From Bugula neritina (lineage: Eukaryota > Animalia > Bryozoa): 64,000 nt of DNA. Location: the NCBI GenBank assembly GCA_964035545.1, contig OZ037768.1, positions 10,200,741 to 10,264,740 of the forward strand, in the 5' to 3' direction. The notes below the pieces were generated by a model that saw only the letters and a program-made list of their open reading frames with translations, did not search any database and was not told the origin of the DNA. How positions within the stretch are numbered: the stretch's first letter is position 1; every line of letters begins with the position of its first letter. Below, one piece after another: positions 4,801 through 46,300 of this stretch. The position numbers and the translations under genes were made by a program.

Positions 4801-7800
4801 CTACATGATTCAAGTGTTGAAACAAAATTTCTCACATTGAAGAGCTTATAATGTGTAATATAACTAGCAATGTATATGTCAGATATAGTATAAATCAACA
4901 TAATATTATAGTGCAATAAAGCATAATACAGTGTGATATAGTATAATATAGTGTGAAACAGTGTAATAAAGTATAATGCAGTGTGATACAGTATACAATC
5001 GAGGCTTTCAACAAGTCCCGTTGTATTTTGAAGTTGTCTCCTCCCAGACGGGCCAAGTGTAGTCTCTATATAAAAACAAGCACATAAAATCAGTAGAAAT
5101 TTAAGGTTTGTGTGAAGACTATTGCTAGTAAGAGTTTCATTTTTTCTGAGATTAATATTTTAGCATAAGCACACAGATTAGCAGATCCAGAAAAATTTAA
5201 AAAAATTTCTTTTTCGAAAACCTTGAGAAAAATTAACTTCAAAGCATGTTTGTGGTTTTGGTTACTGCATGAGCAAGCTGAATTGGCAACTGTGATATAA
5301 GACCCATCAATCATTTGTTATGCTGGCTGTCATGTTCAATTTATAGCTGTTGACCTTTCAACTTTTTGGCCAGAATCTGCTGTTATTACAGTATTAGAAC
5401 ACTGTTATGGAATGAGACAGCAGAGTAGCTGTGTTAGAATTTTCAATTAACTATCCTTACACACTTATGCTGAGAATAGCTAGACTATAACCTCAACATC
5501 CATCATTTTCACAAAAAGCATTCTCACAAAACTATAGATATATATTAAAAAGACATATTAAATTTGTAGTATCAAACCAATATGAAATGTGCTTTGATAC
5601 ATGCCAATTAATTTTCTAATACAGGTTAAATGCATCTATTGCAATTGCAATTATGCTCAAATAAATTATCTAGATAATTTAATTAAAAACCCAGATAGCT
5701 TTTTAGCTTCTATTTACTATTAGAAATTGCAAAATGAATTTGCTCACCTACCACAACAGCTTATTGGTTTTTGAAAGTTTATGCTATGTTCGTGTACTTT
5801 GACATTATTCCCTGGTTTTAGTTGTGCCAGTCTTGTGCAAACACTATAAAATGCTGCACTGGAGAAGATTTACAGCTTAGCTCACTGCATGCATATGTTT
5901 ATTATTTTTAATAATACCTATTAGTCAGGGACAACTTCAAACTTTTACATGAACGAATTATGAACATCATATAATTAAACCTAGCAGGAGTATAGAGTTT
6001 GTAATGTATTTAGTTTATACTACTGCAAATGTTCATACTTGAATAGAGCATAGCAATTAACATAGTTATAGCTTTGATGATCACTGTAACTGGAGTTTTT
6101 TGTTGGGAATTGCTTATTCTACCAGCAGAGATAGCAATTGACTTTTTTTAAAGGAAATTGTTAATTGAAGGTTTTCCTAGTAGAATTGATCATATACCTG
6201 TAAAATAAATTTGCCCCACTGGGAATTGATCGAAGCCAAGACCTCCGGCTTGCAAGCAAGTGTGCTAACCATTACACCATCGGGACCACTGGGTAAACTC
6301 AACACTACATCCCACCCAGTTCTCTGAACTCCACTGGCCTATCTACTACTCCTTCAGTCTTTATACTCCCTTAGCCACTCAACTCCCTTGGAGTACTACT
6401 ACACTACACAAAGGCCAAAATAGCTTGTAAAATAATTTTGTTCCCACTGGGAATCGAACCCGAGACCTCCGACTTGCAAGCAAGTGTGCTAATCATTACA
6501 CCACGGGGACCACTGGGTAAACTAAACACTACAATACCTAATCACTATGCACATTCATCCTTGTAGAGATGCCAATCGCAATCTCTCCTAGCAGGACCTG
6601 TAATTCTCCTAGTAACTATGCCATTTCATCCTAGGAGAGATGACAATTGCAGTCTCTCCTAGCAGAGATGTCAATTGCAATCTCCTCTAGTTGGATTAGC
6701 AATGCTCCTAGCAACTATGCCAAATCTGCCTAGGAGAGATGCCAATTGCAATTCCTCCTAGTAGGGATGTCAATTGCAATCTCCCCTAGTTGGATTAGCA
6801 ATGCTCCTAGCAACTATGCCAAATCTGCCTAGGAGAGATGCCAATTGCAATTCCTCCTAGTAGGGATGTCAATTGCAATCTCCCCTAGTTGGATTAGCAA
6901 TGCTCCTAGCAACTATGCCAAATCTGCCTAGGAGAGATGCCAATTGCAGTTCCTCCTAGAAGAGATGCCAATTGCAGTTCTTCCTAGTAGGGATGCCAAT
7001 TGCAATTTCTCCTAGTTGGATTGGCAATTATTTTAGTAACTATGCCAATAGAGGCTTTTCACAAGTACCTCTGGGGGCAATTATATTTTGAAGTTGTCTT
7101 CTCCCAGACTGGCCAGGTGTAGGCTCCATGATAATTATATAGAACAAGCACATAGAATCATTAGAAATTTAAGGTTTGTGTGAAGACTATTGCTAGTACG
7201 AGTTTTATTTTTTCTCATAGCTTAAATGTGCAAGTATAGTTAATTGAAAATTTTAACACAGCTAATATGCTGTCTCATTCCCTAGCAGTGCTCTAAGACT
7301 GTGTTAACAGCAGATTCTGACCAAAAAGTTGAAAGGTCAACAGCTATAAATTGAACATGACAGCCAGCATAACAAATGATTGATGGGACTTATATCATAG
7401 TTGCCAATTCAGCTTGCTCATGCAGTAACCAAAACTACAAACATGCTTTGAAGTTAATTTTTCTCAAGATTATTGAAAATAATTTTTTAAATTATTCTGG
7501 ATCTGCTAATTTGTGTGCATATGCCAAAACAATAATCTCAAAAAAATGAAACTCGTACTAGCAATAGTCTTCACACAAACCTTAAATTTCCAATGATTTT
7601 ATGTTCTTGCTCTATATTATATCATGGAGACTACACCTGGCCCGTCTATGAGGAGAGAATTTCAAAATACAAATGCCCCTAGAGGGACTTGTGAAAAGCC
7701 TCTATTGTGTGATATAGTATCATGTTATAGGTACAATTATTGTAAAATGTATAAACATTAAGCAATGCAACATTCAATATTTTACCATGAAAAAATGACT

Positions 7801-10800
7801 TTACCTCCAGTCTTCGATCTTGCGATGAATTCAGATGGAGTTTGGAATTTGATTTAAAAAACCTCCTGCTAACTACAAGGTGTCCCACAAGCGTAGCCAG
7901 ATCTGTCAACACACATTAAACAGAAGTACTCTACTGGTAAATTGTGTGTTATAAACTTCAATCAAATTAAACTAGACCTGATATGAAGCAGAACCATCAA
8001 ACTTAGAATTATTCTATACAGCAAACTAATACACACATGAAGCTAATTCCTAGACATGTATATTAACACGCTGATCACAAAATATAGAACTTATAATAAT
8101 TCTGCCTACACTTAGCTATAATGTTGTCAATAATCCCTTCAAAGAACTTGAACTGAATAAATCTCCGAATATGATTGGCTAATTTCTGGTATGTGTTGAG
8201 AAGTATAGACTTTTCGTTATGGTTACCATTGTAAAAAGCCACCTCTTGGCTGTAAACATCAAAAGATTGAAGGCGTATTTAAAACATGATATGCAAACTT
8301 AAAAATAGTTATGACTTACTGGGAAACTTTTACCACACAATAATCCCTGCACAGGCATCTTTACATCTTGCTTATGAAATGAAAAAATAATAAATGCAAT
8401 TAATGCTTAAACAATATTAATTATATCTTAAAAGGTAATTTACATTTACCTGTTGGTCACCAGACGGCTATTTACATATCTAAACTCCCCCTCCAACTTT
8501 TGCTCATCTGCAGTAAACTTTCCAAGAGGTTCCCTCAGCTTTGTTAACAACATACCGGACACTAGAAGATAAGTGATGAGAGAAGCAGGGGCTTGGGCGC
8601 CAATTCTCTGAGAAACTTGGACCACAAATAGAGCAATGGCTAGAAGAGGCTACAAGTAATAGAGTTATAAAGGAACGTTATGCACATGTCTTGAGGAATT
8701 TTTTACTAAAGATGACAATGCTCGAAGTACTACAGTAAATTAGGAACAAACATTAAACTAGATTCACACAAATTCTCAAGTAAAGCTGACTCAAAAGTTC
8801 TCAATATACTTGCTGACTTTATTACAAAAAATTTCTTGATTGAAAAATGTCTGGTTTGACTAAAACCCTTGACTTGAGTTATCTTTATTTACTCAACTAA
8901 TTGACTTGATTCATTGGGATGACTAAAAACTTTGATTGAATTGCTGCAATTTGAAGTACCAACTGGCTTAATTTTGTTTTTAGCACCTATAGACCTATGG
9001 CAGAAAGCCAAGAAGAATTGTAAATGCTCTAGTGTCAATTCCACCTATGAACTATAATTTTAATGCTGTTAGAAACATTTTCTGGTTACCACTTACCGTG
9101 ATTGAATCATAAATGGCAATAACTAAAATTGAATAGTGTGGTGGCTCGTGGAGCTACCAGCAACACAATACGCAAGGTTGCGTATTGACCCGGAACAATG
9201 TATTAGCCAATTAGCTAGGCTGTTTTATGAGAGTAGTAGCAGCTTCGCGCTACTAGCTCAGTTGAGGATAGTGCTGTAAATTAAATAGACGTGCGTATCA
9301 TTGCTGTTGTACATTAGATTTTATTATGTATTCTTGTATTAAAATATAACGATATCTACTCGACTTATCTCGGTGAAGTTTCTCTAGTGATAAATAGACT
9401 CTCTTGGTGGCACATCAACCCTAAATCTGAAAATCTTAACAGTGGTGGCAGCGGTGGGATTGTGTACATCAAAGATGGAGACTGAAAATGCTAGAATGCA
9501 ACCACCCCCAGTAGAAGGTGAGCGTAGAAATGCTGTTAATCCTGTAAATCGTGAGGCAGAAGAAGCTTATAGACATTGCTTGAAAGCTCCCACCTTTACT
9601 GGGTCGGAAGATGTCGAACAATTTATACAAGAATTTAGAGAGGTAATGGAGGTTGCTCAATGGCCGCATAGAGTGGCCCTTATCCAATTGCGGAGAGCGG
9701 TGACGGAACAAGCCAAGCCGTACGGAGTGGGAACGGACGTAAACGGAATACTGGCTGCGCTGCGGGCCCGTTTTGGCATCTCCGCAATAGACGCCAGGAC
9801 CAAGCTGGAGAGATTGTGCCGCAACCCGCGGACCTCGCTGCAAGAACATGCCGCGACGGTGAAGAAGTTGGCGCAGATTGCATACAGCGATCTGCCAGCG
9901 CAACACCAAGAGCGTTACACCTACGACGCCTTTGTCCAGTCACTAAACGACCTGGGCTTACACCATCAACTACGAGCTAAAGGGATAACCAGAATAGAGG
10001 ATGCCCTGAAGGCTGGAGAAGCTTACCTGTTGGCTACTCAAATGCATCAAGCACGACGGAACCCACCAGTAGTTGGAGTCAGCGCTGCCAGGGCTACAAC
10101 AAGCCCCGAAGCCCCCCCGCTAGAAGCCGAAGTGGACCGCATGGTAGAGATGCTGGGACAGCTGGTAACAATTCTGGCTGGCGCCGGCCCCGGTCAGGCC
10201 CTGCGGTTGCCCTCAACACCTGCGGGGCCAAACTGGAGCAGTGCTGGTCGAGACCATGGACAGCAAGGACGACCCCAATACCAAGGGGCGTTAAACTGTC
10301 ACGGCCCGCGGACGCTCTCCCTCCCCGCGGGCCGCAACTAAAGGAGTATGGTGGGAAACGCCGTCGTCTGTCCGTACGGACACGACGGAACACTCCACCC
10401 GAGTGGCAGGTACCACGCAGGACTAGTAGGCCCGCACAACGGCCAAGTACCTTCTCCCTGCCACTCGCTAACCGGTTTCACCGGTTACCTCGGGAAGAGG
10501 AGCCCGCCACTGAAATGGAGCCAGAAGGCCCAGTGGAGAGGCCCGAACCCCGCCGGCACCAACCTCGCCGCCGGAAGCCCCGTAAACCACGGGTGAAACC
10601 CCCGCCGTCCTGTCAACCCAGGACAACACATGCGGGGGGGGGGGGTGAAAGTACAACCACATGGAGAGAGCTATTTCCTACCCGGAAAGGTGGCCGGCAA
10701 CGCCGTCACTTTCCTGCTCGACTCCGGTTGTACTACCAACCTTCTCAGTCGTAGAGTATTTGAGGCACTGCCCCGCCGGGACAGGGATAGAGTACGACCG

Positions 10801-13800
10801 TATACTGGAGAACATGGCACCCTGGCAGACGGGTCATGTATTCCCTTTTATGGTATTATCGAGCTCCCTGGGCGTGTCCGAGATCAGGCTGTACAGGAGA
10901 CCTTTATCATAGGTCAACTGGAGGAAGATGCTATCCTCGGCATGCCCTTCTTGAAGCAACACCAGTGCCGAATCGACTTTAGTAAGTCGGTGGTGCTGAT
11001 GGGCGGGCGAGAACTCGCCTGTGTGGATAAGTTTGGGCGTCCTCTGGTGGGCGGTGTTCAGGTAGTTCGAAACTGCACCGTACCCGGACGCTCCAGAGCT
11101 ACTATCCACTGCCGAGTGAACAGCAACCGGATAGCCAGGCTCGGGGTCGTTGAAGGCGCGCACGAAAGGATCCAACTCGCCAGTAGTTTAAACCGACTAA
11201 CTGAGCGAGGAGAGGTTTTAGTGCAGTGTGTCAACCCCTTTACCGAGCCCATTGAGCTCCCAGCTGGGTCAATGCTGGGCCGGTTCCACTCCGTCCAGGA
11301 AGAGGACGTGGGCCCGTCGCTGGGTGACGCGACGGAGGCACCCCCTCGACACCCTATTCAGGGACGAGGGGCAGTCCCAACACATCTCCGGGAGTTATAC
11401 GAAACAGCCAGTGGCGGCTGCGCGAGTAACAGAGAACGCCAAGCTATGGCTAAGTTACTACGCGACTACGGTGATGTGTTCAGCAGCGGAGAGCATGACG
11501 TGGGGCTGACTGGAATTGTCAGACACGAAATACCGCTGACTGCAGGGACAGTTCCTGTCCGGCAGCCCACACGCAGGCTGGGGCCGGAGAAAGAGAAGGA
11601 GGTTAGCCGACAAGTACGGGATCTTCTGGACCGGGGACTGATAGAGCCCGCCCATAGTGCGTGGAGCTCGCCAGTCGTACTGGTCCGGAAGAAAGACGGC
11701 AGTTGGCGGTTCTGTGTGGATTACCGCAAACTCAATAGCGTAACCATACAGGACGCCTACCCTCTACCTCGTATTGACGAGTCATTGGACGCCCTAGCCG
11801 GCAGCAAGTACTTCAATACGTTAGACTTGCTAAGCGGCTATTGGCAGGTTCCTCTGAGTCCCGACGCCCAAGAGAAAGCGGCGTTTATCACACGGGACGG
11901 TTTGTGGAAGTGGAAGGTGCTGCCCTTCGGGTTAACCTCCGCCCCAGCCACCTTCCAGAGGCTGATGGAACAAGTCCTTAGCGGACTCCATTGGAAGACA
12001 CTGCTGGTCTACCTCGATGATGTCATCGTAATCTCTCCAGACTTCAAGACACATGTCAGTCGTCTACAGGAGGTTTTCGAGAGACTCCGAGGTGCCGGTC
12101 TTAAGCTCAAACCTTCCAAGTGCGCTCTATTGCAGCCGGAGGTCAAGTACCTGGGGCACGTTGTCGGTCGAAACGGCGTGGCAACGGATCCCGAAAAGGT
12201 ACGGGCAGTAGAAGACTGGGTCACCCCCCAAGACTTGACCGGACTCCGGGCTTTCTTGGGGCTGGTAGGGTATTACAGGCAATACATACCAGACTTTGCG
12301 GGCATAGCCCAGCCGTTAAACCGGCTCACCGCAAAGGGAGTGACGTGGCAGTGGACCCCAGTCGAACAAGGAGCGTTCGACCGCCTCAAGGGCTGCCTAC
12401 TAACGGCGCCCATCTTGGCCTACCCAGACCCCACTCTGGAGTACATCCTTGACACGGACGCCAGTGACCAGAATGTTGGCGCTGTGCTGTCACAAGTGCA
12501 GGAAGGCCGAGAGGTAGTAGTAGCCTACTACAGCAAGTCTCTCTCACCCGCTGAACGAAATTACTGCACTACCCGCAAGGAGCTGCTGGCAGTAATCAAG
12601 TCAGTGAAGCACTTCAGACCATACCTATATGGCAGGAAGTTCCGGCTGCGTACGGATCATGCCTCGCTGATCTGGTTGTGCAGGAGAGCAGAGCCCTCTA
12701 GTCAGGTCGCCCGGTGGCTCGAAATCCTAGCTGAATTCTCGTACCGGATCGAACACCGACCGGGCAAGAGACACAGCAATGCGGATGGGTTGAGTCGCCG
12801 ACCTGACGGAGGTTGCAAACAGTGTCTCAACATCGAGAGGAGGGATGGAGGTCCCCCACGATGCGAGTTGGAGACGCTGGCTCATCACGGAGCACCGTTT
12901 GATTGGGATCAAGGTCAACTCAGGCAAAGAGTTGATGAGTCCCCGGAGGATGTAAAAAACCTCCGCGCCAACCCCGTACTGGCCGGTAATGTTCGAGAGC
13001 TGAAGAAGCTCCAAGAAGAGCTGCCTGGAGTCGTGGCAGACATATACCGGGCCAAAAGGGAAGGGCGACGACCCAGCGAGGAACGCATACGACAGGGATG
13101 CGCCGAGTTCCGGCTATACTGTCAGCGTTGGGACTCGCTGCGGATCGGGCAGGATGGGTTGCTAACCATCTCTCTAGCTGCCAGCGGCAGACACCCGGAA
13201 AGGAAGAGGGTAGTCTGCCCCACGGCCATCCGCCGTGAGTTGATTTGGGATACTCACAAACAGGCCCACGCAGGGGTCAAGAGAGTGATATCCAAATTAC
13301 GACTCCGGTGGTATTGGCCGCAGATGGAGCGTGACGTCCGGCTCAGAGTCAAACAGTGTGAGATCTGCCAGGCCAGTAAGCATAGCCGCCCCCCTGGTGA
13401 AGCAGGACGGCGGAGGCTATACGCTGGTAGGCCCTGGCAAGTAGTCGCTGTAGACCTGGTCGGACCCATGCCCCTGACCCCCAGAGGCAATAATTGGATC
13501 CTAGTACTAACCGACCACTTTACTAGGTGGGCGGATGCTCTGGCTATCCCAGATGCATCAGCCCCAACAGTGGCCAGGGCGCTAGACCAACATGTATTCT
13601 GTTATTTTGGGCTTCCCGAACAGATACACTCTGATCAAGGCGCTCAATTCCAGTCTCAACTGATGAGCGACCTTTGCCGCCTCTGGGGAGTAAATCAGAG
13701 CAGGACCACCCCCTACCACCCTCAAGGTAACGGGGTGGTGGAGCGCAACAACCGGATGCTAGGTGATGCGCTCCGGAGTCTCCTCCTTGGACGAGGTCAA

Positions 13801-16800
13801 GAGGAATGGGATACGGTGTTGCCGCAAGTCATGCGTGCATATCGTAGCACCCCACACACCAGTACTGGTGAGACCCCAAACCTCTTGATGCTCGGGAGAG
13901 AGACTCGTGTCCCTGACCATCTCACCTATCACGTTCCAGAGCAAGACAACTCGGTTCACGAGTATGCCAGTGAACTAGTGGAACGGATGAAGGCCGCACA
14001 CGACAAACTGCGTCAACAGCAGTGGAAGGTGCGGCACGAAGATTCCGATGAACCACCTCTCTATCAAACGGGAGATAAGGTGTGGATGGTCAATTACCGT
14101 AGGCGTCGCGGACAGGCTGATAAACTGAAGCCTAAGTTCGTAGGCCCCTACGTGGTCGTCGAGGCTATGCCCAATCATACGTACAAGATTGAGCGCTCAG
14201 GACAGGTGTCTATCCAGAATGAGTCTCGCTTGAAACCGTATTGGGCTAGCCCCGACGGAGTGGGAGAAGCCCCCCCGTTGTTAGAGCCCAGGAGGCAGAC
14301 AACGACGCGCGGGCGACGGCGGCATGGACCTGAATACGAAGTGGTCATATCGCGGGAGGAAAACTTGGTGAGAGAGGAGCGGCAGCTTTTGTCAACGGAA
14401 GCGTGTCCGCCACCGCCGAGTCTAATTCCATCACTTCCGGAAACCGAGCTGGTTCCGGAAGTGCAAACCCCCACGGAGGGAGGGGCTCCATCCGGAGAAC
14501 AAGAAGAGGTGACCGCTAACGGTGAAGTAGAGACGCCATTAGAGGCCCCTACTAACGAACCGGCAAGCGTGTCACCCCCCCTAAAAAGGGGACAGCGTAC
14601 GAGGAAACCCCCGCCATATTTAAAAGACTTCGTATGTGACTGCATTAGAAGCGGCGCACATGAAAGTCTAGGGGAAAACCGTACGATAAAATGTTGGAGT
14701 TGTGAACCCCACGCAAATATCAACTTTTGCGAGGGCGGAATAGTGGGAGGAATTAATGCGCGTAAAGCAAATAGTTCCGACCTCGTGCCTCAGAAACGAT
14801 GCTCAGCCTTTTCTTATGCTGACATCGCCAAAGGCAGACGTATCTCACAACCAGCTCCAACCTTACCAAGAACGTTGAGTATGGACATTAATACCGAGTT
14901 TCCAGGTAAGCCAGTATAAGTCTTGTATTCCTATTCATGGAAACGGGCTCGATGCCAGTAAATTCTGAACTAATTCAGCAGATTGAATCAGAATTACTGG
15001 GAACCACGTTTCATGTGAATGACGATGAAGACACTGTAATGGCCGACGGTCTGTTAGACCTGGAGCTAGACACTGTTCTTGGTCAGTCCACACATGATTC
15101 ATCAGTTCCTCGAGTGCATTCCAAAAGCTGTGACTCTCAGGCTAGCAACGGTCGACAGTCACTAGAATTATGTTGTAAAGATCCACCGCGATCTAACAAT
15201 AATTCTACTTTTGTAGACACACTCGCGCCCGTCTCTACGGGCATGCCTTCTCTAGAGATGGCGTGGGACCCAGAGCCGGCCCCAACAACTCCTACAACCA
15301 GGCAACTGCCACCCCAGTTGGAAGCAACCTCCAACTGGATTACCCCTGCCACAGAGAGAGAAATCAGGACCCATCAAGGAGGTGAGAGTAATCGTGAATG
15401 CAACCTCTGCCAGCAGCGATTCACAACCCACCGCAGACTAAAAGTACACTTGCCGCAGCACTACATCACCACTTTCTGCCCTTGCGGAGAATATAGCTAC
15501 AATCGTGATTACCTACTGCGGCACCAACGTACTATGCAGTGTTATCAAGGGCATGTCTATGAAGTAGACGAATCATCCTATCCTGCCTTTCTCAACGCCA
15601 TCAAACCACTCATCACTGACTCAGCTCGGCTATCTCGCCTGGAGCAAGGCTTCCCTTCCCCGCGACCCATCATCTCTGGAGCCGCAGATAAACCTACACA
15701 GTCTACTAACTCTCCACCTCACAGTCCTCTACGCATGCCGCATACCTTTCCTCGTGTCGTACTACAGAGGGTAGACACAAATGCGTATACACTCCCTCCT
15801 CCCCTTCCATCCTCAGAGCGGAAAAGACACAGACAGCCGACTTCCTCTCGCTCGTCCCCCTGGGCCCGCAACCTACGTGAAGTAGAAGCTAGGGCACACG
15901 ACTTGGAGCAAGAAGTGTACAGACTGGCCCCACGGGTGCAGGCTGCATCCAGTGAACTCAAATATTTACAGGAGTCTATTAAACGCATGAAGCGTGCGGC
16001 CCGCAGTTAACTTGAGTCTACCTACAACTCCATACTACTCATTCCCCTACCTCTCTGTGGCATTCCCTACCGTAATGGTGGCACGTACTCTACATGTAGA
16101 TAGGACCTTCTCTTGCTTATTACTTAGTGTGCACGTTATATATACCTGTATATTTTTATCAGTTGTTGTTTTTTTTTTGTATATACTTTTATACTGTTCT
16201 CTTACCCCCCCACAACGAAGTATACGTTTTTTATGTGAATTTTATTTTATCAGAAAGTGGGCTTTCTGCTGGAGGGGGCAGTGTGGTGGCTCGTGGAGCT
16301 ACCAGCAACACAATACGCAAGGTTGCGTATTGACCCGGAACAATGTATTAGCCAATTAGCTAGGCTGTTTTATGAGAGTAGTAGCAGCTTCGCGCTACTA
16401 GCTCAGTTGAGGATAGTGCTGTAAATTAAATAGACGTGCGTATCATTGCTGTTGTACATTAGATTTTATTATGTATTCTTGTATTAAAATATAACGATAT
16501 CTACTCGACTTATCTCGGTGAAGTTTCTCTAGTGATAAATAGACTCTCTTGGTGGCACATCAACCCTAAATCTGAAAATCTTAACAATAGTTAAACCTCA
16601 AGCTACAAATTTACTCTATTTATTTAGCTGCTAAATGCTGCACAAATTGCTAGTAGTTATCTGTAATGTTTTAAATACACATTATGTTTGTTGGCATTTC
16701 ATCAAGTATTTGCAAGTCAATTAAAATTTACTCAAGCCATTGTAGGACTTGGCTTGAACTTGAGCTGAATTATTTTGAGCCGCGACTTAACATGACTGGA

Positions 16801-40396: not shown

Positions 40397-43300
40397 CTAT
40401 GATGCATTAAATAAAAGACAAATTACCTGAGTAATTGTCAATGTGTTTTTCCCAACTGGATTTTCGCAGACAGTGGCTAACACATCCTCCCCTTTAGCAG
40501 CATATACAACTCTGCATGCCGGCTCGCTACACGTTGCAACTACACTCCCTGAGCCAATAGTCAATATGATTCCATGTAAGTCAGCAACATCATCTGATGA
40601 TGTCACCCGATTCGATCCCTTGTACAGTTTGGGACTCTCTTTTAAATTGAATATTTTTTTCACCTAAAAATGAAAAAACTTTCATAATTCAACTTATCAA
40701 AGTTATACTTTTATACAAAACCAATTGGTGACATGTGAGTCTCCTATCCACTACTCTATTAGGCCAACCCTAGGCTGAATAGTGAGAGGACTTACTAAGA
40801 GCACACTGCTAATAATATGTTATTTTCATAACCACAATGTTTAGCTAGTAAGTAACAACATAATACTTTTATTACAATTGCTTACTGTACAACACATGCG
40901 AGATAGCCTGTCTATACAGAATGGAGACCAATTCTTACCAGATGACAGAGGGATCCATAGGTAATAAAGTTACCAGACCCTACTTGTGGCTCCAGTGCTA
41001 CAGTAGCAACTTCACCATCTTTAGATATGTTGCAGAATTTAAGCTGGTGGCCGGTTGACTGTGTCTTGAATGACATCCCTACTGTGTTCCCCCGAGCAGT
41101 TAAAGTCACCTTTAAATTGTAGTCTTTCACCTAAAGCAGTTTTGATAAAATTATAAAATGTGGCTAAGATGCAATAGAGATGGATATTACGAGCAAAAGT
41201 TGCCAATTAAACTTACTTTGCCCTCCTTAGAAATGATAACTTGATCACTTGCTGCAGGTGGTTTGTTGAGTAGAGGTTGTTTGACTGCACTGTTTATCAG
41301 CTCCTGATTCTGAGCCACAACTTCTACTAGTACCTTGTCTGCCTCATAGTATATGCTAATATCATCATTAGGTTGCAGGCCTGCCTAAAATACATATAAA
41401 TAAGTTGAAACATTGAATTTTAAAAGTAATGAACACATTTCATAAATCATACTGTGGATTATATTATACTTTTCACTATGTTTGGTTCAACTTGAAATTT
41501 ATCAGCTAAAAATAAGGTGAAGAATTCAAATAGCTGCAACCCACAAAAACCTAGCAACGTGTAGTTTTATTTGCAATAGTATATTTAAACCGGTTTCAAA
41601 TTTGTAATACCCCAGCACAGAATCAAATCAAGCATAAGCATACACTATGCTATTGCATTAATTTTACGTAGGTTCGTTTTAATTCAAATCTACCAAGTAA
41701 GACATTTAACACACAACAGCATTACAATGTTTTTATGAGCCAAGTACAGCTGTTGGAAGTTCGAACTTGGTTTAATTTCAGCTTTACAAGCAATATATGT
41801 TGAAATATTTGTTCACAAATCAAATACCTCTTTTCTGAGTTTTTGAATGCGGTTAGTGACCTCCCTAGCAAGGCCCTCACTCTTGGCACTTTCATCAACT
41901 CTGCAATCCAGCAGAACTAGGGCTTGCCAGTCAGAGTTGGGCTCATAATGTGAGTTCTGTGAGCCCTCCACCACCAGTTTGGTACGAACCTCCGAGACAT
42001 CAACTCTCTCACCCAACACTTCTATGTAGCCTGCACAGTTATATAGTTATGTAGTCTGTACAGTTATACAGTTATGTAGTCTGTACAGTTATACAGTTAT
42101 GTAGTCTGCACAGTTATATAGTTATGTAGTCTGTACAGTTATAATATAGTTATGTAGCCTGTACAGTTATATAGTTATGTAGCCTGTACAGTTATATAGT
42201 TATGTAGTCTGCAAAGTTATATAGTTATGTAGTCTGTATAGTTATATAGTTATGTAGTCTGTATAGTTATATAGTTATGTAGTCTGTACAGTTATATAGT
42301 TATGTAGTCTGCACAGTTATATAGTTATGTAGTCTGCACAGTTATACAGTTATGTAGTCTGCAAAGTTATATAGTTATGTAGTCTGTACAGTTATGTAGT
42401 CTGTACAGTTATATAGTTATGTAGTCTGTACAGTTATATAGTTATGTAGTCTGTACAGTTATATAGTTATGTTCAAGCAGGTGCATGTTTCTCCAATATG
42501 TAACCAAAATATTCTACATAGAATAAAAAACTGCAAAATAACTGTGAACACTGGCTTTGTTTTTCAAGAACAGACAATTCCAATGTCACAGATACCAACA
42601 GTTGAGTGGACACACTTAATTTACACATATACTACAATTACCAACCCACCTTGGTCTTGCAGCTTGCAGATTTCCTCATGACTCATGCCAGCTATGTGCT
42701 TACAGACATCTTTACTAGCTTTCTTCAGCCTAATGCCAAGGGCCTTGGAGTCACCTTGAGCCTCCATCTTCACATTGAATGCTGCTCGGTCAGTTGTCGT
42801 AGTCAATGATTTAACATTCAACTCCTGAGAGAAAGAAGACACTTAGTTACAGACCCAAGAACAAAAACATCTAGTGTACACACACGCGCACGCACACACA
42901 CACACTATAGAAAAGACTCACGCAAGTTCATAATCACCATCACCGTGAGAGCCCCTGACGGAAAGGGTTTTTTAAATCGAGGTAAAGACTTATTCAAATC
43001 GAGGTAAAGACTTATTCAGATGGGGTACAGGAGCAACTATGACTGGATGCTCTTCCTTTGTTGGGGTTCGAACCCATGACTTCGTGTTTACTAAGCCAAC
43101 GCTCGAACCCCTACCTACGCCCACCATATATGATACAAAATGCAGAACACAGGTACCCAATACAATACAATGCACAGGATATTATCGCATGAGCTATACA
43201 CACCTCAATAATGTAAGTTCTAAGAGACTCAACATCCTTGAGGAAACCTTCATCCTCATTGACAACCACCACCTCCTTCAGTGGATACTTGATAGGAAGT

Positions 43301-46300
43301 GTCCTTCTGTCTCTACTAACTCTCCCCAATTCTATAACCGACTGCATCCTGCTGACTGCTGCCTCTATGTTGGTGTCTATAAGCTCCTCCCTAGGCTCTG
43401 GCACCATCAGAAAGTGAACACTCTCTTCCTTCACTTCTCCCACAATGACATTTCGCAGATTTCTGTAAAACGTTTCTGCCAGAAAAGGGGTGAACGGTGC
43501 CTGCAAATGATAATAAGTACAGAAATAAAGCAGCCTGCAACAGATGTAATGGACCAATACTGTAACAAATTCAGGCCAATAACCATGCAGCATTCTAGTA
43601 TAAACTTGCATTATGGGTAATGACGGTTGGCTGGGTAAAACCTTAGAAACTTAACAAAATCCTATGAGTTAAAACACTTATAACTGTGACACACCATCAC
43701 TTTGGCCATGGAGTAGATGACAACGAAGAGAGTTTCAACGGCAGCTTGACAATCTGCTGCCCCCGAGTCTCCTTTCAGCCTGCGACGATTCATCCTGACA
43801 TACCAGTTGGTGAGATTCTCCACAAACTTGATGAGCCTCGGCACTACTGTGTACAGTCTGTAGGCTGTCAGAACAAGAAAGGATTATAATCAAGAAATTG
43901 TAGGATAATTGTTAATCAAGTGAAAATCTTCAGAAAACAATCATATAGAGTAGTAAAATGATGTTACCAAAACAATGTGTATAGTTATATTTGGTAGACT
44001 ATATGAATAAATATGGTCAATGTCAACTTACTGGGCTCCGTACCTATGACTGTATCTGTTTAATTTATGATAAACTCACCAGCCATTTCAGCTCTCACAA
44101 ACTTGATTAGACTCTGTGTGAAGCTGAGGATCCATCTATCCATGTAGTTGTAGTCGTCAGTCAACTTCCAGTTAGTCTCGTCATGTCGAAATTCAATTCC
44201 TTCTTCCTGAAATACAAATCCAATGAATTTTAAGAAAACCAATTTTTAATTCACCTTTGTATAAGCGTTTCTGAGGAACCATGGCTGGAAAAGTCTTTAG
44301 AGATGCCCACAATTCTTTTGACTTGATATAGCAAATGATTACAACTTTCCTCCATCAAATTTTCCATAAAAACTAAATGAATCCTCTTGCAGGTAATCAT
44401 CAAAGTAGAATATAATGATTTAGAATATTAATAGTATGTCACAGCGAGCATTACTAGTAGTACAATAAGGAAGCCTATATCTAGGGTAGACTAACATACC
44501 CTCTGGAGACGCTCTATGTTTTGAACAAGATATCTGTAAGCATTGAACCATGGCAGGAATACATCCTTGAGTATGTCCCTGACCCCATCTTCCTTGAACT
44601 TCAAACCGTCACCTCTTACGGCCGGAGAGTTAATGAGGTATAACCTACACAATATTGTATCTTTTTACTTACTGCAATGTTTCATTGAAAGCATCACTTG
44701 AACTTCATTGAATTAACATTATCCACAATATATTCAGCATTGCATTCATAAAATAAACGTGTTTTTGCTCTGCATATTAGAAAGTATGTCATTTTCAGAT
44801 TAGGCAAAGTTAATGCCAGAAATTCACATATCTACCTCACAGCGTCAGCTCCGTACTTGTCAACTATCAGTGAGGGTTCCGGATAGTTCTTTTTTCTTTT
44901 GCTCATCTTTGATCCATCACTACATTGTTATCAGAAAAATTAACGCAACTTGAATGAAAACAAAAAGTGCATTATTTTAAAGTGCGCCGGATGAGATATT
45001 CACTATAGCAAATTAGCTCTAAAAAGTTGTCAAAAGTCAGTGTAATTATACTGATTTCGATTTGGAGAGTTATGTACCCTTTTGGCAGTTTGAGAAAGTG
45101 CATTATTCTAACACTCACTTGTGGTTTTCGTGCTGGATATAAATTATTCATTATATAAAATATAGCAAATTAAAAACTGTCAACCTAGAACACAGTAAAC
45201 TGTTGAATATACCCGTGGTTTGCTCAGGTTGGTGAGAAAGATGCAGAGAAGGTCTTCTGCCACCTAACACTTTTTAGGCTGCTTAATGCTTACTGATTTT
45301 AGAAAAAATTTTGAACATCAAAAAATATAACAGATGAAGGAAAAGGAAAAAACAAACTTGCACGATGCTTACATATACACTTTTGGCATACTATAGTTGA
45401 AATCTGTTTGCTAATGCATGTTAACCAGACTCAGCATAGCTTAAGCCTCCTAATAATATAACAATCCCAAGTGACATGGGATTTTTAAGATATGTTGGGC
45501 AGCCTAGCTGCAAGGTAATAGGCTGCACATTAATATAACTTGTTGATACTCTGTGCAGCTGGAGATATAGAATATGTTAGCCTCACCTGGCTAGAACAAG
45601 GCCATTGCAGATGAGATTTTTAAAGGCAGGCTTTCCAAAAAGTGCTGTGGAGAGTACAAGGAGCGTATAAAACCACCCCCTGGTCTGATCAATGCCTTCA
45701 GCAATGAAGTCAGCTGGAAAACTGTAACAGAACACAAATACATCTTCAACAACTTACAAATCAGGTAAATTGCCAAGTAATATTTCAAACCAGCCAGCAA
45801 ATATAAACAAAAATTGGGATTACCTTTCTTCAAACTCCTGTTTCCTTTGAAATGGATAGTGTTGCTGTGCATAAGGCATGCTTCCAGACTCAAACCAACA
45901 GTCAAAAACCTCCGTCACTCGACGGAGAACGCCTTTTCCTTGAGTAGAGGGTATCGTTATGTGATCAACTCTACATAAGAAAAATTGTAAGTATGCCATA
46001 GAAACAAAATGAAAACACCAACATTTAAAAATTGGTTGAAATTGCATAGAATGCTTCATTTTGATAAAATGCAGAAAATAATACGTTATCAACTTTGATA
46101 GCACCCAACTCTGTCAGGTTAGGAAAATCATGAGTGTGTTTAGGAATACCAATAATGCACACACGCAACTCCTACTTCCAAGATTACTACCTGTGTGGAG
46201 AGAAACCGGGAGTTGTCTGCACCAGAAGCAGTTAGTACTCACAAGCTATTAGATAACACTTCAACACAACTTATCCGCAGTACTTACTACATTGATGGAA

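Follow-up and report, generated by a model that had tools for sequence, protein, structure and literature searches.

The third open reading frame (ORF3) of a Ty3/Gypsy retrotransposon in the analysed window, the whole 64,000-nucleotide stretch of Bugula neritina DNA, is a real, conserved accessory gene for a non-membrane protein, and it very probably represents the former C-terminal tail of the lineage's Pol/integrase, freed by gene fission. As the sequence-only reading had described, ORF3 is intact, follows pol inside the LTRs (14937-16010, forward strand, 357 aa) and starts with an ATG 17 nt past the pol stop at 14919. Its frame differs from that of pol. A pol-to-ORF3 frameshift was ruled out, with a frame overlap of just a few bases and no slippery site. 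The same reading had placed the gene "in place of env". This turned out to be wrong: ORF3 is most likely a detached C-terminal part of Pol, a part that is fused to the integrase in many relatives.

The element is a Ty3/Gypsy LTR retrotransposon by its domain order, TG..CA LTRs, target duplication, primer-binding site and polypurine tract. Its 305-nt LTRs (9137-9441 and 16282-16586; forward strand, as for all coding and cis features of the element given here except the strandless palindrome) are identical across their length and are framed by a 4-bp target duplication, ATAG, directly before the 5' LTR (9133-9136) and directly after the 3' LTR (16587-16590); the element is young. A primer-binding site, TGGTGGCAGCGGTGGGAT (9443-9460), which we take to be complementary to tRNA-Leu, and a polypurine tract (16271-16281) border the internal region. 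A gag-like ORF of 288 aa (9475-10341) is devoid of a CCHC knuckle and resembles the N-terminus of one related Pol (P0137). An open frame across the gag end (9981-10754) probably encodes what is naturally the N-terminal part of Pol; its motif is present in frame in some relatives. In the window copy, this frame is discontinuous with the protease frame. The break falls at a run of 12 G (10634-10645), and either an assembly error or a genuine lesion of the window copy may account for it. A canonical slippery heptamer was looked for in the gag overlap and none was found. The pol ORF (10630-14919) encodes protease, RT, RNase H and an integrase with a GPY/F-SH3 module followed by a 258-aa tail, and the order of its Pfam domains (PR-RT-RNaseH-IN) matches Ty3/Gypsy. 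No chromo domain was matched at a Pfam E-value of 1 or below, in agreement with the earlier view of a Pol without chromodomain. The GC content of the element is 52-59% versus 27-39% in the surrounding DNA, and Rfam gave no match anywhere in the element. Elsewhere in the window, we noted a two-copy tRNA-like repeat (6229-6533; Rfam tRNA at 6439-6510, minus strand), which is probably SINE-like, MITE-like nested inverted repeats (5021-7707), tandem arrays of 99-bp (6553-7047) and 25-bp units (41966-42510), and a host exon on the reverse strand (43111-43611) coding for the anticodon-binding domain of a tRNA ligase (Pfam Anticodon_1).

From N- to C-terminus, the 357 residues of ORF3 comprise an acidic region (net charge of -12 over residues 1-60), a conserved two-zinc-finger domain (residues 120-245; 15294-15671), the basic patch RKRHR and a terminal coiled coil, all elements recognized in the sequence-only reading apart from the extent of the domain. 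Both finger patterns and their coordinates agreed with that reading: C-x2-C-x12-H-x3-H for finger 1 (15399-15461) and C-x-C-x12-H-x5-C for finger 2 (15477-15542). The latter may resemble the third finger of Swi5/Ace2. The Pfam zf-C2H2 match is weak (E-value of 0.022, below the cut-off). Across 115 modules, seven zinc ligands are near-invariant, while the eighth is a cysteine in 38 of 40 members of the ORF3 group and variable in other modules. Basic residues are kept on both finger helices of the same modules (K/R-R on helix 1, R-D on helix 2). The finger linker counts five residues and is not of the TGEKP type, and position +6 of finger 1 is a conserved hydrophobe, which is atypical of base-reading fingers. 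RKRR-type patches recur in 13 long homologues, and the basic patch is predicted to act as a nuclear signal. No signal peptide or transmembrane helix was detected in ORF3, the maximum hydropathy over 19 residues being 0.63. The terminal heptad helix (15858-16007; a/d positions L313, V316, A320, L323, V327, L330, V334, A337, L341, L344, I348 and M351) scores above all 200 shuffles (p=0.005), and this heptad pattern is the basis on which dimerisation of ORF3 is predicted.

In the AF2 model of ORF3, residues 121-240 are ordered, residues 308-356 form a single helix and the remainder is disordered. Modelled alone, the two-finger domain reached a pLDDT of 94.9 and a pTM of 0.86, with the order short strand and helix, finger 1, five-residue strand linker, finger 2, strand and two helices. 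Both fingers thus belong to one predicted compact domain and not to a loose Kruppel-type array. Among 48,161 chains, none reaches a Z-score of 5 against this domain; the top-ranked but weak fold match is the RNA adaptor ARS2 (Z of 3.7, rmsd of 8.0 Å). The finger pair alone superposes on the DNA-bound pairs of Kaiso, ZBTB38, SALL4 and ZBTB20 over 50-57 residues at 2.3-2.8 Å (Z of 3.3-3.5), and is predicted by this modelling to keep a DNA-binding geometry. Foldseek returned nothing at E<=0.001 in BFVD or PDB, and hence no F- or gB-type fusogen fold among the families listed there. Coiled coils were the sole matches of full-length ORF3 in a VIA search, the matching clusters of the ESM Atlas are unnamed or generic C2H2, and no Pfam family spans the two-finger domain. 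A complex prediction run without alignment on two copies of residues 120-357 scored 0.19 versus a mark of 0.32.

ORF3 is not a chance ORF because its homologues are numerous. Word searches yielded 60 and 63 homologues with 35-77% identity, and a full HMMER scan gave 278 matches at E<=0.001 among 50% representatives, 150 of which were listed. Among 61 proteins that include the ORF3 N-terminus, 47 start at the same methionine, 10 start inside and 4 upstream. Sequence variants were surveyed as copies in the contigs of two public runs, the DNA run of which may be the window's own source, and the best-supported 40 of 105 variants were considered. Among the listed substitutions in ORF3, 23 of 28 are synonymous compared with a neutral share of 0.24-0.35, corresponding to a dN/dS of about 0.07-0.11; by region, synonymous changes account for 7/8 in the finger domain, 8/8 in the coiled coil and 8/12 in the rest of ORF3. 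For indels, the 12 of 24 that were listed all fall in the 3' UTR and none in ORF3. ORF3 is therefore under purifying selection, and since it is also unbroken by the listed indels, the split form is a trait of the family rather than a lesion peculiar to one copy. A dN/dS near 1 and broken copies had been named beforehand as findings that would speak against a functional gene; the values obtained point the other way. One contig of the DNA run (X2) has a joint between 14668 and 16247 and represents a copy without any ORF3. Locus scans of viral and metagenome contigs with ORF3 gave no match, nor did the integrase in viral contigs, and the integrase scan of prokaryote genomes gave one irrelevant match. 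In metagenomes, the integrase scan retrieved 80 mostly distant loci, two of which carry the module after the integrase, both decayed throughout; the locus L001, with 49% integrase identity, has no module. Behind this integrase in L001 (2092-3102) comes a gag that does have a CCHC knuckle, in a tandem or nested copy.

Fission is the simplest and most likely reading of the origin of ORF3 because of four lines of evidence: the existence of Pol fusions, the nested position of the window Pol, the agreement between trees and the presence of relatives that read into ORF3 from upstream. Concerning the first, the module is found in frame after the integrase in 23 of the 120 closest Pol proteins with the ORF3 profile (E<=1e-5), and in 31 after profile iteration; 16 of these 31 also have a significant terminal heptad. 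In one cluster, five of the six integrase-bearing members carry the fusion. The in-frame module is missing in 89/120 Pols, a count based on protein sequences alone, in which decay, fission and absence look alike. The conserved two-finger domain of ORF3 is homologous to this C-terminal extension. Measured across the pol-ORF3 junction of the window, about 383 residues separate GPY/F from the module, compared with 182-747 (median of 355) in the fused Pols. One Pol (P0080) shows a terminal helix similar to that of its fused relatives but no zinc module, a possible internal loss.

In an RT-RH-IN tree of 105 of the 120 Pols (15 without coverage were left out), the window Pol lies within a clade of 38 leaves with 14 fused members (support of 0.963). 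In an 18-taxon subset, its sister P0079 (UFBoot of 100) has no in-frame module, and the next branches, P0081 and P0092, are fused (UFBoot of 78). The module tree was built on 115 of 167 modules, leaving out 52 redundant ORF3 copies, and puts ORF3 in a group of 36 without known Pol fusion (0.976); many of these 36 are fragments, so that a free state is not implied. Distances between modules and between Pols are strongly correlated (Mantel rho of 0.82, 0 of 5000 permutations, n=29). The nearest fused modules by path length (P0107, P0091, P0085 and P0081) do not quite match the nearest Pols (P0092, P0083 and P0081). Finally, in four relatives the reading frame enters the ORF3 start from the upstream side. 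Two of these extensions match the end of the window Pol (p=0.0005), while the remaining two are not significant alone (p of 0.07 and 0.16). All four branch outside the window's 44-member group (0.69).

A bryozoan gene bears on the alternative that ORF3 is a host zinc-finger gene captured recently, or a Pol leftover that is decaying and functionless. In Watersipora subatra, a RefSeq gene (P0200/P0338; XP_067940964.1 and XP_067940963.1) encodes two isoforms with two tandem modules and a terminal heptad, and is possibly a case of domestication. Another protein, P0228, has two modules and a heptad as well. In the module tree, the ORF3 group adjoins the Watersipora gene inside a larger group with P0081, P0092 and P0083 (0.78). 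Taken by itself, this sister position of a host-annotated gene would suit a capture, as the contig without ORF3 would suit decay. However, the host gene falls within the diversity of the Pol-fused modules, the module has long co-diverged with Pol, and the low dN/dS and the lack of ORF3 indels in the rows listed are at odds with a leftover. The host-exon capture foreseen in the sequence-only reading as a refuter is consequently not borne out by the co-divergence, and we regard capture or decay as largely refuted and very improbable.

What the freed protein does is less firmly settled than where it comes from. An acidic N-terminus, DNA-compatible fingers, a basic patch and a heptad repeat are what a dimeric activator would be expected to consist of. 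With somewhat less than even confidence and partly on the basis of modelling, we propose that ORF3 may be a nuclear, dimeric two-finger protein that would act in trans, bind the DNA of the element and activate or protect LTR transcription. ORF3 can act in trans because it is selected after losing its link to the integrase, has kept its own start and has a domain that stands alone in a bryozoan gene. A perfect palindrome in U3 with 10-bp arms and a 2-nt spacer (9166-9187) could be the operator of such a dimeric protein. Arms of 10 bp were reached in 1 of 1000 shuffles, and the arms of 8 bp in a common variant of the palindrome in 50 of 1000. The palindrome is located about 75-95 nt upstream of a putative start composed of an Initiator-like TCAGTT and a DPE-like AGACG at +28 to +32 (9258-9291; 21 of 5000 shuffles), matched to the Initiator and DPE consensus, and transcription likely starts at 9260 on these motifs. 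In the proposed mechanism, ORF3 would be translated either from a subgenomic RNA or through re-initiation and would enter the nucleus to act in trans on the element's own LTR; its dimer would recognise the U3 palindrome, and its acidic N-terminus would recruit the transcription machinery. The weak fold scores, the atypical linker, the +6 residue of finger 1 and the shorter arms of the common palindrome variant count against this proposal.

The ancestral fusion to integrase suits a role in integration more than a role in transcription. An integration tether would read host DNA or chromatin and steer the integrase like a chromodomain; after fission, it would do so through coiled-coil binding to the integrase or the particle, or as a spliced Pol-ORF3 fusion. 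The ancestral place of the module is indeed at the end of the integrase, where chromoviruses have their chromodomain; this Pol lacks a chromodomain. Besides, a strong donor-like CAG|GTAAG is present at 14905, just before the pol stop. The forward strand of the element has three such sites in all, and this one can equally be taken for an acceptor, 31 nt ahead of the ORF3 start; another strong donor-like site at 9517 lies early in gag. However, no splice joint was found in the contigs of one RNA run (X1), a small share of the run, taken as contigs only and not as evidence of expression; ORF3 is partly covered by RNA contigs, such cover being no proof of transcription. Moreover, the free protein is deprived of the covalent link on which such tethers depend, and the conserved start (47/61) together with the stand-alone bryozoan gene points to action in trans. 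A tether is considered a less likely but serious rival.

A still less probable, though likewise serious, rival role is that of an RNA factor, which would bind the genomic RNA for export or packaging and offset the knuckle-less Gag. The lack of a CCHC knuckle in the window gag region, the predicted nuclear signal and basic Arg-rich surface, and the top rank of ARS2, though weak, are consistent with it, as is the precedent of CERV in Cer1 (PMC10309623, in its available text). Yet, knuckles are missing in all 21 Pols with a long N-terminus, in the 6 that have the module as in the 15 that do not, giving no sign of complementarity, although the NC region may lie outside these proteins, and the finger geometry matches DNA-bound pairs.

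The statement that a third ORF of Gypsy elements is typically env appears too strong in the light of several non-env types in bdelloid and nematode elements (PMC5408684, PMC10309623) and of sORFs (PMC11952523), as far as the available texts describe them. Add-ons of the integrase such as the chromodomain (PMC2774666, PMC6338049) and element-encoded anti-silencers such as VANC (PMC6719617) are also known from the accessible parts of these sources. Like ORF3, the chromoviral extension is an extra reader-type domain past the integrase GPY/F that is inherited with pol (PMC2774666, available text); here, it is a double zinc finger with a coiled coil, 182-747 residues past GPY/F and in a separate ORF in the window element. 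CERV of C. elegans Cer1 is likewise a non-env nuclear accessory protein with a Cys finger, a basic nuclear signal and predicted multimerisation, but differs, by its available description, in its spliced mRNA sharing gag exons, its C4-type loop, its role in RNA export and the lack of a tie to Pol (PMC10309623). The bdelloid ORF3s also follow pol and encode no envelope, but stem from the capture of GDSL, DEDDy, TM or coiled-coil genes, and "zinc" is nowhere in the available text (PMC5408684). Errantiviral env occupies the same slot between pol and the 3' LTR, whereas the window ORF3 has no signal peptide or TM helix and is very probably derived from Pol, not from a virus (PMC13524379, available text). 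VANC of VANDAL offers the model of an element-encoded protein acting on motifs of its own element, but belongs to plant DNA transposons and is a functional analogy alone (PMC6719617, available text). The tandem C2H2 factors Kaiso, ZBTB20 and SALL4 share the superposable finger pair, PDB profile matches and the canonical finger 1 pattern; ORF3 differs from them by its short strand-like linker, its C-x-C second finger, its variable fourth ligand and the flanking helices and strands in one domain. As the sequence-only reading had suspected, ORF3 matches no named family in the libraries and literature searched. The main texts of a survey of env-bearing Gypsy elements (PMC13524379, as available) and of a survey of annelid elements (PMC8556966) contain neither "zinc finger" nor "zinc". 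The literature search found no account of the two-finger domain; Repbase, Dfam, GyDB, most subscription papers and supplements were outside its scope and may list it.

To conclude, ORF3 very probably illustrates how an LTR element can gain a third gene without capture, by splitting the tail of its own Pol, and examples of the fused, intermediate and free states are all documented. The two-finger domain is common in this lineage despite having no Pfam family or clear fold match. Comparing its fused and free forms would be a natural way to learn if add-ons of the integrase direct integration or control the element itself, while the LTR palindrome provides a candidate site that makes the transactivator idea directly testable. 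In its broadest and rather doubtful form, our proposal is that of an undescribed, large Gypsy lineage of marine invertebrates whose integrase bears a new double finger and a coiled coil. One branch would have freed this part as a sequence-specific transactivator or anti-silencer acting on the LTR palindrome, and a bryozoan would have domesticated it as a two-domain gene. The bryozoan two-module gene may add a new case of domestication, and the whole scenario, if true, would lead from an add-on of the Pol integrase, by way of a regulator of the retroelement, to a transcription factor of the host.
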